A DNA stretch of 64,000 nucleotides from a bacterium. GTDB taxonomy: Bacteria > UBA8248. The notes under the pieces are model-generated. The model searched no databases and had not been told where the DNA came from. It saw only the letters and a program-made list of their open reading frames with translations. Of this stretch, positions 57,803-62,798 are shown piece by piece. The stretch covers positions 2,304,001-2,368,000 of the forward strand of contig OZ241326.1 of assembly GCA_965199855.1 (NCBI GenBank), read 5' to 3'. The position numbers and the translations under genes were made by a program. Position 1 is the first letter of the stretch. Each line of letters begins with the position of its first letter.

Positions 57803-59494
57803 ATGACCGAGCGGAAAACGGCGTTGAACAAGTTCAGCCGCCGCGTCACCCAGCCGCCCTCGCAGGCCGCCTCCCAGGCCATGCTCTACGGCGCGGGGCT
57901 GGACGAGACGGACATGGGAAACCCCCAGGTCGGCATCGCCAGCATGTGGTGGGAGGGAAACTCCTGCAACTTCCACCTCAACCGGCTCGCCGAATACATC
58001 AAGCAGAGCGTGAGCGCCGAGAAGAAAATGGTCGGTCTCATCTTCAACACCATCGGCGTGAGCGACGGCATCTCGATGGGCACGGAGGGGATGCGGTATT
58101 CCCTGCAATCGCGGGACCTCATCGCCGATTCCATCGAAACCGTCGTCGGCGCGCAATGGTATGACGCCCTCGTCACGCTCCCGGGATGCGACAAGAACAT
58201 GCCCGGCTCCATCATCGCCATGGCGCGGCTCGACCGCCCCAGCCTGATGGTCTATGGCGGCACCATCAGCCCGGGATTCCTGAACGGCGAGAAGCTGGAC
58301 GTGGTCTCCGCCTTCCAGGCCTACGGCGAATACTTCTCCGGCAAAATCGACGAGGAGCGCTTCCGGTCGGTCATCCGCAACGCCTGCCCGAGCGGAGGCG
58401 CCTGCGGAGGCATGTATACGGCGAACACGATGTCCTCCTCCATCGAGACGCTGGGCATGAGCCTGCCCTACAGCTCCTCGAATCCCGCCATGAGCGAGGA
58501 GAAGCGCAGCGAGTGCCTCGACGTGGGCAAGGCCGTCTATCATCTGCTCGAAAACGACATCAAGCCCAGCGACATCATGACGCGAGAGGCGTTCGAGAAC
58601 GCGCTCACCATCGTCATGGCGCTCGGCGGCTCGACCAACGCCGTCCTGCACTACATCGCCATCGCCAAGGCGGTCGGGGTCGAACTCACGATTGACGATT
58701 TTCAGGAAATCAGCGACCGCACGCCCTACGTCGCGGACCTCAAGCCCAGCGGCAAGTTCGTCATGGAAGACCTCCACGACGCGGGCGGCGTTCCGGGCGT
58801 CCAGAAGATTCTCCTGAAGGAGGGGCTGCTCCACGGCGACTGCCTCACCGTCACGGGCGGAACGCTCGGCGAGAACATCGAGGCCCTGCCCGACCTGCGC
58901 GCCGGGCAGAAGATCATCGTTCCGCTTTCCTCTCCCATCAAGGAGACGGGGCACCTCCAGATTCTCTACGGAAACCTCGCCGGCGAGGGCGCCGTCGCCA
59001 AGATCACGGGGAAGGAGGGAGAGCGCTTCGAGGGGCCGGCGCGCTGCTTCGACTCCGAGGAGGACGCCCTCAAGGGGCTGGAGGAGAACAGAATTCAGAA
59101 AGGAGACGTCGTCATCATCCGCTACGAGGGCCCCAGAGGCGGCCCCGGAATGCGGGAGATGCTGACAGTGACCTCCGCCATCATGGGAGCCGGCCTCGGC
59201 GGCGACCTGGCGCTCATCACGGACGGAAGATTCTCGGGCGGGACGCACGGCTTCGTCGTCGGGCACGTCACGCCCGAGGCCCAGGCGGGCGGCCTCATCG
59301 CCCTCGTCGAAGACGGAGACCCCGTTCTGATCGACGCGAGCGAGCGCGTCATGGAGCTCCGAATACCCGATGAGGAAATCGAGAGGCGCCGGGAGCGTTG
59401 GCGCGCCCCCGCGCTCAAGTTCACCAGGGGCACGCTCTACAAATACGCCAAATGCGTCTCCTCGGCGTCCGAGGGGTGCGTGACGGACGAATAG
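57803..59494 (+). CDS. ilvD: Dihydroxy-acid dehydratase
   Basis: [35 protein letters not shown]. Confidence 0.95.
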
Positions 59495-59516
59495 GCTCCA
59501 AGCTTTCCGCCGGGCG

Positions 59517-59972
59517 TCATTCCCTGCTTCTTCGGGCGGCGTACGCCCCGAAATACGCGCCGATGGAAGATGCCTTCCAGTCGAGGCCCGCATCTTCGGC
59601 CTTTCGCAGCAGCTCCTCGCCGCTCATGCCGCTTTCCTCGGCCAGATGAACGAGCGAGCAAATCCCGGCCCGCCCCATGCCTTTTCAGTGGACGAACACC
59701 GGGCCCTCTTTTCTCGCCTGGGCGAGCGTCTCGTGAATCTTCGAGGCCAGCCCGTCGTTCATCGCATCGACGCCCACGGGAATATGGGCGAAGTTCATGC
59801 CCAGCTCCCGCGCCGCCGCCTCCTCCGCCTCCGGCGGGAGTTCGGCTTCTCCCTCGTCGGCCAGGCGAAGGTTGACCACCGTCCTGACTCCCCGCTTCGC
59901 CAGAGACGCCAAATCCTCCCTGTCCGGCTGGCCCCCGAACGCCAGGTTCTCAGCCAGGTCGAAATAGTTCAT
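59517..59972 (-). CDS. DUF442 / PTP-fold sulfur transferase, probable selenoprotein (Sec at codon 96)
   Basis: GGQP, TVVNLR..DE, HIPV, then GPVFVH-TGA-KGMGRAG with the frame open 55 more codons to 59517. Confidence 0.82.
59652..59675 (-). promoter_or_regulatory. Candidate bacterial SECIS element
   Basis: GGGCGGGC-CGGGAUUU-GCUCGCUC 8-bp stem (2 G-U) starting 9 nt 3' of the UGA. Confidence 0.6.
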
Positions 59973-60054
59973 GACGCTTTCCCTTCTCGATGATGGTCCG
60001 GGCCGCGTCGGCGGCTGGCCGGGCTGAAGGACGATTCAAGCCGAAGAAGCGACC

Positions 60055-60897
60055 TCATCCGCGCTGCGCCAGCTCCCGGCAGCGGAGCAGGCAGGTGGCC
60101 TTTTCATCCTCGCCGTCGCGCTTGTAGATTCCGATCAGGTTGTTGAGCATTCTCTCCACGATGCGCCGGGGCGGGGTTTCCTGCAAAAACCGCATGTCGA
60201 AATGATAGCCGAGTCCCCGCACGATGGCCGCGCAGTCCCCTACGCTCAGGCGCTTTCCCCGCTCGAAGGGATCCAGAAAGACGGGCTCCTCATCGGTCTG
60301 GTATTTTACGATGAAATGCCCCGGCATCCCGACCCCGTGAAACGGAAGCCCCAGCCGCGCGCCGAGAACCAGATACAGGGCGGAAAGCGATATGGGAATT
60401 CCCAGCCTGCGATTCAGCACGCGGTTGATGAAGCTGTTCCGCGCGTCGTAGTAATCCTCCCGCGCGCCGTCGAAGCGAAGCTCGCCGTGCAGATACTCCA
60501 CCACTTCGGCGACGACGGCCTCCGCCTCACGCAGACCCCGCAGACGCTCGCGCAAGTGATTCTCCATGCTCCGCAGTTCTTCCCTTTCCCTCTCCATGCT
60601 TTCGAGCGGATGGCCGAAGGCGGCCAGCAGAAAGCAGGCCTCCTCCAGACCCGCGTCCGCCGCCGAAGAGAGCGACCAATCCGCAAAGGCGGCTTCGATT
60701 TGCCCGTAATGAAAACGCAGGAGCGAGGGCGGCAGCGCCGCCTCGTTCGTCTCGCGCACTTTGAGCATCGAGAAGAGCCTGCGCCGCTCCTCGGCCGAGA
60801 AGCCGGAAACCTGGCGGTCCAAAGCCGTCGGCACGCCCGGCGATCCATCGTCGAGCAGGCGGCAGACGGCTTCGAGCTGGGAATCGCTCAACGACAA
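60055..60897 (-). CDS. Transglutaminase-like SirB1 family protein
   Basis: DYYDARNSFI, RLGIPISL, GMPGHF, DPF, RMLNNL; AAGGAGG RBS before TTG. Confidence 0.85.
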   Translation of the reverse strand: MSLSDSQLEAVCRLLDDGSPGVPTALDRQVSGFSAEERRRLFSMLKVRETNEAALPPSLLRFHYGQIEAAFADWSLSSAADAGLEEACFLLAAFGHPLESMEREREELRSMENHLRERLRGLREAEAVVAEVVEYLHGELRFDGAREDYYDARNSFINRVLNRRLGIPISLSALYLVLGARLGLPFHGVGMPGHFIVKYQTDEEPVFLDPFERGKRLSVGDCAAIVRGLGYHFDMRFLQETPPRRIVERMLNNLIGIYKRDGEDEKATCLLRCRELAQRG

Positions 60898-61002
60898 GTC
60901 GCCGTCCTCCTTTCGGGTGAGCCGCCCGTTCACGTCCCGGCTCCCCGAATATGGTATGATCATCCGCGCATCTTCACAATCGACGCCCATCGGGAGAAGC
61001 GT

Positions 61003-62628
61003 ATGGCGACGTATGCCGACGTTGTGGCGGAGGCTCTGCGGGACGCGGGGACCGAATTCATCTTCGGGGTTCCCGGAAGCCTGAGCTCCGTGGAGATCAT
61101 CGAAGCCGCCAGGAAGCGCGGCGTGCGCTACGTCCTTTGCAGCAACGAGAGCAGCGCGGCCGTGAAGGCGGGAACCTACGGAATCATGACGGGGCGGCCG
61201 GGGGTCGTGAGCACGGGGGTCGGGCCGGGGGCGGCGGCCGTTCTCCACGGCGTGGCGCACAACTTCCTCGAGCGCGCCCCCTGCCTCGTTCTGACGGATC
61301 GCTTCCCGGACGCGCAGTTTCGCCGCCAGGGCCGGCAAAGGCTGGAGCAGGATCGCCTGCTGCGCCCCATCACGAAGGGCACCTTCAAACTGGCGAAAGA
61401 CAACGCGGCCGCGGTCATCCGCCGCGCCCTGGCGCTGGCGGCGGAGGGGAGGCCGGGGCCCGTGCACGTGGACCTTCCCTACGACGTCATGCTGGCCGAC
61501 GCGGAGGAAGGCGATTTTCCGCCGAAGGAGAAGCCCCGGAAATACGTCGGCCGCGCGGGCTCCGCCCATCCGGGAATCGCCGCGGCCGCCGCCGCCGTCT
61601 CTGAGGCGGACAGGCCCATCGTAATAGCGGGCCTTCAGGTGAACCGCTCGGGACGGGAGGCGGAGAAGCAGTTCGTCCGCTTCGCCGAAAGGCTCGGGGC
61701 GCCCGTGCTCGCCGCGCCGTCGGCCAAGGGCGTCCTGCCGGAAAACCACCCCCTCGCCATGGGAACCTTCCGCGGCGCGCCTTCCGAGCGGGAGCTGATA
61801 GACAGGTCGGATCTCCTGATTCTCGTGGGCTTCGACACGGTGGAGGTGTTCGCCCCGGGCTGCTGGAACTATCCCCAGCGGGTGATCAACCTGGACGAGA
61901 CGCCGCACCTGGAAGACCTCATCCGCCCCGAGGTGGAGGTCGTCGCCCATCTCGCCGACGTCCTCGAACAACTCGCCGCCTCCGTCTCCTCCGCGCACGC
62001 CTGGAACACCGAGGAGATGGACTCCTACAAGAAAATGCGGCAGGCCGCGCTGTTTCCCGCCGGCGAGGGACTGATGCCCGGCGCGCTCATCCGCGTCGCC
62101 CGGGAATGCCTGCCCGACAACGGCATCATGACGACGGACGCGGGAAGCCACAAAGTCCTGGCCAACGACATCTGGGAGACGCGGCGTCCCCTGGGCTATC
62201 TCACCTCGAGCGGCCTGGGTTCGATGGCGGTCGCCATGCCGGCCGCCATCGCCGCCAAGATGGCGGAGCCGGACGCGCCCGTTCTCTGCCTCACGGGAGA
62301 CGGCGGCTTCCTCATGCGGATAGGCGACATGGAGGTCGCCGTTCGGGAAAACGTCCCCTTCGTGGTCGTGGTGTTCAACGACGGCTGCCTGAACCTGATC
62401 AAAATCAAGCAGGACGCCCGCTCCTTCCCCCGTCTGGGCACAGGCTTCCGCGATTCCGACTACGCCTCCGTGGCGAGGGGACTGGGATGCGAGGGAGAGA
62501 GGGTTTTTTCGGAGGAAGAGCTGGAAGACGCCCTCAAGCGGGCGTTCGCGTCGGAGAAGCCCTGGGTCATCGACGCCGTCATCAATCCCGACGGCTATGT
62601 CGCCTCGAAAGACGTTCGCGCCGAATAG
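61003..62628 (+). CDS. Thiamine pyrophosphate-binding enzyme (acetolactate synthase-like)
   Basis: FGVPG, GPG, PGPVHVDLP, GDGGFLM...FND TPP motif. Confidence 0.88.
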   Translation: MATYADVVAEALRDAGTEFIFGVPGSLSSVEIIEAARKRGVRYVLCSNESSAAVKAGTYGIMTGRPGVVSTGVGPGAAAVLHGVAHNFLERAPCLVLTDRFPDAQFRRQGRQRLEQDRLLRPITKGTFKLAKDNAAAVIRRALALAAEGRPGPVHVDLPYDVMLADAEEGDFPPKEKPRKYVGRAGSAHPGIAAAAAAVSEADRPIVIAGLQVNRSGREAEKQFVRFAERLGAPVLAAPSAKGVLPENHPLAMGTFRGAPSERELIDRSDLLILVGFDTVEVFAPGCWNYPQRVINLDETPHLEDLIRPEVEVVAHLADVLEQLAASVSSAHAWNTEEMDSYKKMRQAALFPAGEGLMPGALIRVARECLPDNGIMTTDAGSHKVLANDIWETRRPLGYLTSSGLGSMAVAMPAAIAAKMAEPDAPVLCLTGDGGFLMRIGDMEVAVRENVPFVVVVFNDGCLNLIKIKQDARSFPRLGTGFRDSDYASVARGLGCEGERVFSEEELEDALKRAFASEKPWVIDAVINPDGYVASKDVRAE

Positions 62629-62798
62629 CAAAAATAATATAACTTGACAAGATTTCCCCCAACGACGCACCCTGCGTCATATATCTCTTTTCAGGCGGAG
62701 GAATTCGCGTTTCCCCGCGAGTTGAACGTCCGGACAGGGAACGTCCGGGCGGCAATGTCCTCGACCCCTCGCAGGGGTCCCGCTCGGGAGGATGACAG

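Follow-up and report, generated by a model that had tools for sequence, protein, structure and literature searches.

The window analyzed here is a stretch of 64,000 nucleotides of bacterial DNA. Near its right-hand end, a gene of the DUF442/BLH_phosphatase family carries an in-frame TGA at the codon of its catalytic residue. The gene, its internal features, and its neighbors are as follows.

57803 to 59494, plus strand: ilvD, dihydroxy-acid dehydratase (PF00920 and PF24877), the convergent downstream neighbor.
59517 to 59972, minus strand: complete predicted selenoprotein gene, DUF442/BLH_phosphatase, PTP fold, 151 codons plus a terminal TGA (from translation, PF04273, and an AF2 model).
59517 to 59519, minus strand: true stop codon TGA of the DUF442 gene.
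59652 to 59675, minus strand: SECIS hairpin, codons 100 to 107 (G-R-A-G-I-C-S-L), from folding, RNAalifold, and synonymous-site invariance.
59685 to 59687, minus strand: UGA codon 96, assigned to selenocysteine (Sec) at the catalytic-cysteine position in VH-U-KGMG-R, from the conserved TGA and the Cys column in homologues.
59972 to 59970, minus strand: ATG start of the DUF442 gene, from translation.
60055 to 60900, minus strand: Transglut_core2 (SirB1-like) protein of 281 amino acids (aa) with a TTG start (PF13369, 152.6 bits), the upstream same-strand neighbor.

The initial annotation had described a 95-aa open reading frame ending in GPVFVH before a TGA at 59685 to 59687, a frame that runs on to give 151 aa, and an H-U-K-G-M-G-R segment that fits an H-C-x4-R active loop. 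Our translation agrees on each point. The short frame extends from 59972 to TGA96 and has the C terminus GPVFVH; beyond TGA96, the same frame reads KGMGRAGICSLVHLAEESGMSGEELLRKAEDAGLDWKASSIGAYFGAYAARRSRE up to a second TGA at 59519 to 59517, which yields a 151-residue protein with the active loop H95-U96-K-G-M-G-R101. Inspection of its N terminus revealed no signal-like sequence. In the 31 loci compared, homologues terminate with TAG, TAA, or TGA within a few codons of the stop codon assigned here.

Every locus that was read out has TGA at this motif. In all 31 loci from relatives it is codon 96, and it lies within VH-U-x4-R in 17 of 17 metagenome loci (15 complete genes, with TGA at codon 96, and 2 fragments), although the metagenome scan used the Sec-only alignment A3 and the pattern GRAG[IV]CSLxH, which favors Sec forms. 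The genome also has a second copy with Sec, whose TGA lies within the identical VH-U-x4-R motif. Six-frame searches of 51 genomes of the phylum returned 57 matches at E values of ≤1e-31, from 35 of these genomes; all 57 had the TGA and covered residues 1 to about 150. Of the best 10 database proteins, nine are short gene calls (93 to 95 aa) with V[FY]VH as their last residues. TGA and tail are retained from 99% down to 37% identity, and no frameshift or extra stop separates the two gene halves in any of the 31 loci. Counting against the proposed readthrough, one orthologue (L044) has a second TGA at the codon of the invariant Trp132. A sequencing or assembly error at the TGA was rejected, since contigs from three other studies cover the gene at 95 to 99% identity with TGA and hairpin unchanged, no indel in the coding sequence, and neither TGC nor TGT at the site; a T>C change at 59682 in these contigs is synonymous (AAA>AAG). 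One protein from another lineage (P0141; 94 aa, ending in GPVFVH, a singleton on a 1681-nt contig) is a possible Sec form.

Among the 150 best representative homologues, 134 have Cys in the TGA column; the remaining 16 comprise six with Ser, five with another residue, and five cut-off sequences. The Cys-bearing homologues share the H-C-x4-R loop, with H95 in 132 and R101 in 130 of the 134. Downstream of the TGA, dN/dS for codons 108 to 147 ranged from 0 to 0.56 over 15 pairs, compared with 0.03 to 0.27 for codons 1 to 95 over the 13 pairs with unsaturated dS, the only ones counted. Judged from these substitution patterns, the 55 codons past the TGA are under purifying selection and the tail is thus predicted to be translated. 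Within it, the whole Sec clade keeps H109, E113, A125, and W132 unchanged.

The components required to insert Sec were all detected in the same 3.04-Mb genome: selA (548.3 bits), selB (371.9 bits), selD (344 bits, with one in-frame TGA of its own), and a tRNA-Sec with anticodon TCA (79.4 bits). Because selA and selB are free of in-frame TGA codons, a global reassignment of TGA was rejected. In the phylum, selA was found in 49 of 51 genomes; the two exceptions have completeness values of 67% and 79%. For similarly labeled metagenome-assembled genomes, BSepDB gives 48 to 54 selenoprotein genes.

An 8-bp hairpin with G in loop position 2, starting 9 nt past the UGA, had also been pointed out in the initial annotation, and it was recovered with exactly these properties. 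Its stem pairs 59675 to 59668 with 59659 to 59652 around the 8-nt loop CGGGAUUU (59667 to 59660). The published bSECIS model (PMC13188914) specifies a loop of 3 to 9 nt, a stem of 4 to 16 bp, a G within the first two nucleotides of the loop, a UGA-to-loop distance of 16 to 37 nt, and a minimum free energy of ≤−7.5 kcal/mol; here, an 8-bp stem closes an 8-nt loop that lies 17 nt from the UGA, and the hairpin folded by itself reaches −13.3 kcal/mol. The agreement with the loop pattern "mostly seen" in that model is loose only. For a genome of 67% G+C, the folding energy is not remarkable and not convincing alone: the 28-nt hairpin has a z score of −1.93, with 9 of 200 shuffles equally stable, and the 81-nt fold around it has a z score of −0.27. 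It is the comparison among relatives that raises the hairpin above chance: the TGA, the downstream frame, and the synonymous sites within the hairpin are all conserved. The four-fold third positions of codons 100, 102, 103, and 106 show zero entropy, compared with 0.59 to 1.96 bits in the 36 other four-fold columns of the gene, and codon 101 is CGG or CGA only. RNAalifold gave a consensus stem of 7 bp for 30 sequences, and pairing is kept in 261 of 261 cells, with the variants AU/GU, GC/GU, and GU/GC. As there are 0 compensatory pairs (the shuffle control was flat and the columns hardly vary), the case for the structure is built on synonymous-site invariance together with one-sided compatible changes. 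A scan of 59400 to 60100 against Rfam matched no family (best E value, 0.22). In the whole genome, the 22-nt core of the hairpin has just two occurrences, one per DUF442 copy. Like the SECIS elements of selD and of other coding regions in this genome, it is a G+C-rich hairpin that follows the UGA within ∼10 to 13 nt and has a G at the start of a small loop, but the hairpin sequences are unrelated. Since its stem is made of P-loop codons (G-R-A) and codons of the next helix (C-S-L), the RNA fold and the sequence of the active site may constrain each other.

The DUF442 gene thus has every standard feature by which bacterial selenoproteins are recognized in silico. TGA96 is almost certainly read as Sec at the active site of a DUF442 enzyme, as the initial annotation had proposed, and this assignment draws on the conserved TGA, the Cys column, the Sec machinery, and a hairpin within the bSECIS constraints.

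Family and fold were assigned from profile matches and the AF2 model. The protein scores 38.5 bits against PF04273 (gathering cutoff, 26.1; residues 6 to 102) and 37.9 against the sibling model PF22741 (cutoff, 27). The model of the 151-residue protein has a pLDDT of 94.2 and a pTM of 0.89; residues 100 to 150 have a pLDDT of at least 95, and the helices predicted there complete the PTP fold. The top structural matches are 3gxh/3gxg and 2f46 (TM, 0.70 to 0.74; identity, 19 to 24%), and profile searches of solved structures found NMA1982 (2f46; 4.9e-14) and a DUF442 protein of Shewanella (3gxh/3gxg; 1.9e-11). In NCBIfam, the Blh sulfur-transferase domain and TIGR01244 match best. The score of 54.5 for TIGR01244 against a curated cutoff of 85.85 makes the protein similar but not a member by the NCBI threshold, and Blh (NF040641) scores 63.7 against 625, with protein residues 6 to 135 aligned to positions 3 to 130 of 423, so that the full two-domain Blh architecture (DUF442 plus ETHE1) is absent. 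Because both scores lie below the cutoffs, the label "sulfur transferase" applies by similarity only. The loop is U(X)4R and not the classical C(X)5R signature of PTP/DUSP enzymes, and the rhodanese domain PF00581 gave no match at an E value of ≤0.1. In silico, the recoding signature, the predicted fold, and the family placement are established.

The closest functional counterparts are the N-terminal domain of the Blh proteins of Xylella and Agrobacterium (NF040641) and the DUF442 domain of the Cupriavidus pinatubonensis SQR, which share PF04273 and the H-C-x4-R-A loop. Thiosulfate:cyanide and glutathione (GSH) sulfur-transferase activities are reported for DUF442 domains (PMC5823870), and in the SQR-fused domain a C94S exchange is described as abolishing rhodanese activity (PMC9163753); Cys94, the nucleophile of that domain, is equivalent in position to Sec96. 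The protein described here differs in having Sec for Cys, in standing alone at 151 aa with no ETHE1 or SQR partner domain, and in having Cys at +9 (Cys105). All members of the Sec clade have this Cys, whereas just 2 of the 150 top homologues do; the others usually carry L, F, or M here. Proposed chemistry is also shared with the rhodanese-like selenoproteins (PF00581, forms 1 to 5), predicted families in a 2026 catalogue of selenoproteins, in which Sec likewise replaces a persulfide-carrying Cys; fold and family are unrelated, and the likeness is confined to the mechanism.

By analogy with these enzymes, the protein would function as a rhodanese-like sulfane-sulfur (or selenium) transferase. 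In the mechanism we propose, UGA96 would be decoded as Sec by the SelA/SelB/SelD/tRNA-Sec system of the cell, directed by the SECIS hairpin inside the coding sequence, 9 nt past the UGA. Sec96 would substitute for the catalytic cysteine of the family, and its selenolate could carry sulfane sulfur (or selenium) as an Enz-Se-S(e)H intermediate before handing it to a thiol acceptor. Sec at this position might confer higher nucleophilicity and resistance to irreversible overoxidation. Taken together, a 151-residue DUF442 selenoprotein with SECIS-directed Sec96 and rhodanese-like transferase chemistry is, with good confidence, the best explanation of the locus.

The surroundings of the gene are conserved. 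The SirB1-like gene, whose start was set by comparison with orthologues that have stop codons just upstream, adjoins the DUF442 gene in 29 of 31 loci. No terminator-like site was detected in the 82-nt gap between them, and the two genes are probably cotranscribed. Synteny with ilvD is likewise retained in 29 of 31 loci. An obligate partnership of the SirB1-like protein with the selenoprotein was rejected, since 11 of the 46 genomes (among 51 of the phylum) that have the SirB1-like gene are without the selenoprotein. The profile of the SirB1-like protein matched no solved relative, and its structure model is poor (pLDDT, 54.1). Besides the SirB1-like gene and ilvD, this first copy (copy A) has an acetolactate-synthase-like TPP enzyme nearby; copy B neighbors a glyoxalase-fold gene, dnaX, and an AAA_21/DUF4276 pair. 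Neither neighborhood contains genes for sulfur, selenium, or phosphate signaling, and among the neighbors of both copies we found no ETHE1/persulfide dioxygenase, SQR, or metallo-beta-lactamase gene.

Two other readings accept the selenoprotein and assign it a different chemistry. It could hydrolyze phosphate esters, as a Sec-dependent C(X)4R phosphatase with a selenophosphoryl-enzyme intermediate. Its model is NMA1982 of Neisseria meningitidis, which among solved structures matches best by sequence and is also a top match by fold. This protein is described as a secreted tyrosine phosphatase whose PTP mechanism relies on C95 and R100 from a C(X)4R loop, with D71 as general acid (PMC10716126). 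Like the Shewanella protein 3gxh/3gxg, it resembles our protein in its stand-alone size and in having a loop that is shorter by one residue than the PTP signature. As far as that description goes, the two differ in that NMA1982 has Cys where Sec stands here and is secreted, whereas our protein has no signal-like N terminus. Of 29 Sec forms, 27 have D or E at residue 73, which could act as a general acid, yet no Asp is invariant within residues 60 to 79 of the Sec clade. The Pfam models for PTP (PF00102; 12.9 versus a cutoff of 20.9) and DSP (PF00782; 13.7 versus 33.5) stay under their thresholds, the families of the 2026 catalogue include no phosphatase, and the sulfur-transferase activities reported above come from two independent DUF442 domains. 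We consider a phosphatase unlikely.

Alternatively, the protein could have a redox or selenium-handling role, with U96 and C105 forming a selenenyl-sulfide couple (a thiol-selenol oxidoreductase or oxyanion reductase) or with the protein serving as a selenium carrier that feeds SelD. The restriction of Cys105 to the Sec clade speaks for such a role, as do the heavy investment in selenium reflected in the BSepDB counts and a review according to which the in vivo selenium donor for SelD is unresolved. However, codons 105 to 107 (UGC UCG CUN) form the 3′ arm of the SECIS stem, so Cys105 may be imposed by the RNA and not by protein chemistry, and neither gene copy adjoins selD, a reductase, or a thioredoxin-type gene. 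This role appears quite improbable to us.

The reading of TGA as an ordinary stop, leaving a 95-residue stump, a decaying pseudogene, or two genes with the downstream frame untranslated, is strongly disfavored and can be dismissed with near certainty: in its favor, the proteins annotated in GenBank and by gene callers have 95 aa, and an ATG past the TGA in this genome (Met99) lets a 53-aa frame be listed, but, according to the model, nucleophile, P-loop Arg, and three of the fold's helices would all be missing from the stump, and pseudogene and split-gene versions were rejected because tail dN/dS is well below 1, the frame is intact, and residue 99 varies among relatives (L, V, G, A, or T), so that a restart is not conserved.

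Returning to the selenoprotein transferase, the Sec version appears to be new, while the enzyme family itself is already known. The initial annotation had tentatively placed the family outside the standard bacterial selenoproteins, and Table 1 of the 2026 catalogue (119 families or subfamilies), the list compared here, indeed has no entry for DUF442 or a PTP fold; NCBIfam has no selenoprotein model for the DUF442 family. In the tree, the Sec clade stands separate on a long branch (support, 100/99; length, 1.01). On balance, we lean toward a wider reading in which these proteins are the first PTP-fold selenoprotein family, a form of the C(X)4R DUF442 enzymes with Sec in place of Cys, in which SECIS and P-loop constrain each other and Cys105 is either RNA imposed or the resolving partner of Sec96, and in which the Sec form arose once and was duplicated, so far within one selenium-rich, largely sponge- and marine-associated family (NCBI label Nitrospinota).

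According to the authors of the 2026 catalogue, most characterized selenoproteins have a thioredoxin-like fold; a PTP-fold Sec protein would add a new fold class to the selenoproteome. In GenBank and gene-caller output, the genes stand as 95-aa stumps named "sulfur transferase domain-containing protein," and where selenoproteins are counted by way of families already known, the approach of BSepDB, as many as two genes per genome would be overlooked in this lineage. With synonymous sites frozen across the hairpin only, the dual coding of the segment may offer a test bed for SelB-SECIS recognition beyond model organisms. The natural Sec/Cys pair, finally, bears on how the C(X)4R loop is tuned between sulfur transfer and phosphate hydrolysis and on what selenium may add.

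The initial annotation described a DUF442 gene with a TGA at the catalytic position, a frame continuing beyond it and a downstream hairpin; re-derivation of the ATG, the TGA, the continued frame and the hairpin, all on the minus strand, showed its coordinates and description to be correct. The features are listed below, the gene under study being referred to as copy A.

Features of the locus and of the second copy
59972-59970 (-): ATG start, with a purine-rich AAGGGA just upstream
59687-59685 (-): in-frame TGA, codon 96, closing a 95-codon ORF that ends ...GPVFVH
59675-59668 with 59659-59652 (-): 8-bp hairpin stem, starting 9 nt past the UGA; -13.3 kcal/mol
59519-59517 (-): second TGA, ending the extended frame after 55 further codons in the same frame
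About 61009 to 62628 (+): TPP-enzyme gene, acetolactate-synthase-like
G000:C1:647892-648338 = L054:4893-5339 (-), elsewhere in the same genome (G000): copy B, second Sec DUF442 gene, 47% identical to copy A

Read-through of the first TGA yields a product of 151 residues with the loop H95-U96-K-G-M-G-R101. Nearby, two very long ORFs overlap on opposite strands (60055-62670, -; 60202-62628, +), of which the only real parts are a SirB1-like gene (60900-60055, -) and the TPP-enzyme gene; the long spurious antisense ORFs at 60055-62670 are due to the high G+C.

The protein matched PF04273 in Pfam at 38.5 bits (cut-off 26.1), together with the sibling family PF22741. Its best NCBIfam similarities were to the Blh sulfur-transferase domain and TIGR01244, both of which scored under their curated cut-offs, so that the protein was not filed in either. 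In an AlphaFold model (pLDDT 94.2, pTM 0.89), the tail after the UGA formed three helices completing the PTP fold, and the predicted fold was nearest to the solved DUF442 proteins 3gxh/3gxg and 2f46, followed by bacterial and archaeal PTPs. A HMMER scan of 1.84 billion representatives recovered 2633 homologues at E <= 0.001; column 96, read in the best 150 of the 2633, held Cys in 134, Ser in 6, a gap (truncated calls) in 5 and another residue in 5. Since His95 was present in 132 and Arg101 in 130 of these 134 Cys forms, the family loop is H-C-x4-R, as had been proposed from the sequence. DUF442 domains of Xylella Blh are reported to move sulfur from thiosulfate onto cyanide or GSH (PMC5823870), and that of Cupriavidus SQR is described as a rhodanese whose activity is abolished by C94S (PMC9163753). 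By analogy, we infer that the Sec protein may transfer sulfane sulfur, and Sec96 would bear the transferred atom (sulfur, or else selenium) in the form Enz-Se-S(e)H. The rival to sulfur transfer is phosphatase chemistry: NMA1982, which has the same short loop, was reported to be a PTP with C95, R100 and D71 (PMC10716126), and in the Sec forms (homologues with an in-frame TGA at codon 96) none of the Asp among residues 60-79 is invariant, although position 73 is D or E in 27/29 of them. As rhodanese-fold selenoproteins have already been predicted in the literature, a Sec DUF442 sulfur transferase would be a convergent instance with a different fold.

The ten best matches in a collection of 5.8 billion proteins (98% to 59% identity) were predicted genes with products of 84 to 95 residues, of which nine ended exactly at ...V[FY]VH and the other (P0012) ended earlier, and two were GenBank entries of 95 aa named 'sulfur transferase domain-containing protein [Nitrospinota bacterium]'. 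Six-frame searches gave matches in 33 of 61 related genomes and in 35 of 51 genomes of the phylum, comprising the window's own genome and 34/41 others of the same family; other families of the phylum had none in this search (0/9 genomes). All 57 six-frame matches at E <= 1e-31 held a TGA and spanned residues 1 to about 150. The TGA was codon 96 in each of the 31 extracted loci (30 different sequences), within the motif VH-U-[KRM]xxGRAG[IVL]CSL, and the same TGA motif occurred in 17/17 metagenome loci, for which the scan pattern was taken from Sec forms and is biased towards them. Comparison of this column in relatives, a check suggested by the initial annotation, thus returned TGA in all of these loci and in copy B. 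Downstream of it lies a conserved, translated tail, with dN/dS of 0 to 0.56 across codons 108-147 (15 pairs), and of 0.03 to 0.27 across codons 1-95 (13 pairs with unsaturated dS). Contigs from three other studies span the whole gene at 95-99% identity, with TGA and hairpin unchanged, no TGC or TGT at this codon and a CDS free of indels; the change nearest to the TGA was 59682 T>C (synonymous, AAA>AAG). On the strength of the conserved TGA, the dN/dS of the tail and these independent contigs, a pseudogene, a split gene and a sequencing error were rejected. The Met at residue 99 is not kept in the relatives, which have L, V, G, A or T at this position, and a conserved restart is therefore absent. 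One locus of the 31 (L044, G009:C5:285643-286089) has a second TGA at codon 132, in place of the otherwise invariant Trp132 (FD-W), for which a recent TGG>TGA mutation, truncation of the gene or an error are possible explanations. Near-identical DNA was found in metagenomes from sponges and marine samples, and the runs listed included none of RNA.

The genome is a single contig of 3,043,534 bases with 67.3% G+C, and it encodes all four components of the Sec machinery that were sought: selB (371.9 bits) and the adjoining selA (548.3 bits), selD (G000:C1:2985603-2986568, -, 344 bits) and a tRNA-Sec gene (79.4 bits with Rfam; tRNA-SeC, anticodon TCA, with ARAGORN). A single in-frame TGA lies in selD, with the small hairpin GGUCC-GGA-GGACC after it, and SelD is therefore also a selenoprotein. 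Neither selA nor selB of this genome has an in-frame TGA, so TGA is not generally reassigned. Within the phylum, selA was present in 49/51 genomes, the two without it being 67% and 79% complete. According to the BSepDB text, MAGs that share this NCBI label and are assigned to GTDB UBA8248 rank among the richest selenoproteomes (48 to 54 genes), a group to which this genome would appear to belong.

The hairpin loop is CGGGAUUU. By energy the hairpin is not rare at this G+C (z = -0.27 for the 81-nt stretch; 9/200 shuffles of the hairpin alone folded equally well or better), and the case that it exceeds chance must therefore rest on comparison. RNAalifold on the 30 different sequences gave a single consensus element with a 7-bp stem, GGCGRGC/GCUCGCU, and an 8-nt loop, to which copy A adds an eighth pair. 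The element, which the initial annotation took for a SECIS, agrees with the bacterial model in section 5 of PMC13188914 (a loop of 3-9 nt with G in its first two positions, a stem of 4-16 bp, UGA-to-loop 16-37 nt, MFE <= -7.5 kcal/mol), its UGA-to-loop distance being 17 nt, and matches the 'mostly seen' loop pattern only loosely. Among 41 four-fold columns scored in codons 1-125, third-position entropy was 0 bits at codons 100 (GGG 27/27), 102 (GCC 30/30), 103 (GGG 30/30) and 106 (UCG 30/30), 0.95 bits at codon 101 (CGG or CGA only, each pairing with U) and 0.59 to 1.96 bits at the 36 others; the constraint ended with the stem (codon 107, 1.37 bits). We regard this synonymous-site invariance as the strongest evidence for the putative SECIS. 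In a 29-row alignment all 261 cells were paired, three pairs varying on one side with pairing kept; no compensatory double change occurred there, and covariation proper is therefore not demonstrated. The genome has exactly two occurrences of the 22-nt core, one per DUF442 copy, and no Rfam family matched. The 8-nt loop could hold two G.U (or G-C) pairs (columns 28-34 and 29-33), permitted in 29/29 sequences; if formed, they would leave a bulged C and a G-N-U triloop (59652-59675, -). Members of the Sec clade all carry Cys105, which is shared by 2 of the best 150 homologues; L, F or M is usual there. It could be a resolving cysteine; codons 105-107 form the 3' arm of the stem, so it may instead be imposed by the RNA.

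In a maximum-likelihood tree (62 rows; representatives outside 140 to 175 aa left out, midpoint root only), all Sec forms made up one clade on a long branch (100/99 support), within which the two copies of this genome fall into separate sub-clades. P0026, a metagenomic Cys form (162 aa, contigs <= 2116 nt, 49% identical) that reads VHCKAIGRAGVCSF and retains the Cys at +9 typical of the clade, also branched among the Sec forms (moderate support, 93/74); its nested position suggests that Sec reverted to Cys. P0141, a DUF442 gene call at greater distance (94 aa, singleton, 1681-nt contig, 44% identical), ends ...ADGPVFVH and may be a Sec form of another lineage. Copy B reads VH-U-KATGRAGICSL, its 22-nt SECIS core is identical to that of copy A, and both copies are present in most genomes of the genus. 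The neighbours of copy B are unrelated to those of copy A. Copy A directly follows a 281-aa Transglut_core2 (SirB1-like) gene on the same strand, with ilvD beyond, an arrangement seen in 29/31 loci; the two loci without it are of the second-copy type. The SirB1-like gene and the selenoprotein gene are separated by 82 nt in this genome, against about 24 to 30 nt in most relatives, and the predicted structure of the SirB1-like neighbour was of poor quality. An obligate partnership was rejected, since the SirB1-like gene occurs in 46/51 phylum genomes, 11 of them without the selenoprotein. In one related genome (G008), a remnant of copy A (C10:131441-131719, +; a weak six-frame match at 2e-15, residues 2-101) with TAA and no TGA adjoins the SirB1-like gene at 130563-131402; in both this genome and G019, copy A seems to have been lost and copy B retained. 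Downstream of copy B lie an AAA_21 ATPase gene and an overlapping DUF4276 gene (L054:2978-4773, -), a pair often tied to abortive-infection or defence functions.

Full-text searches found no literature joining 'selenoprotein' with 'DUF442', and no selenium among the matches listed for PF04273, TIGR01244, BLH_phosphatase or the product name. None of the 119 families and subfamilies in Table 1 of a 2026 review is listed as PF04273, TIGR01244, a phosphatase or a PTP, in line with the initial annotation, which tentatively did not count this among the standard bacterial selenoprotein families; 'phosphatase' and 'sulfur transferase' are absent from the main texts of deep-Sep and BSepDB, and no selenoprotein model of NCBIfam release 20 matched. 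The in silico evidence shows that UGA96, the nucleophile position of the C(X)4R loop, is recoded by a local SECIS and that the cell is Sec-competent. Sec machinery, TGA in 31/31 loci, Cys in 134 of the best 150 homologues and the SECIS together uphold the hidden selenoprotein, and it is well supported that the protein is a Sec version of a known enzyme family, one probably unreported so far. Sec in place of a catalytic Cys is a well-known kind of change, and the finding is of clear interest for selenium biochemists.
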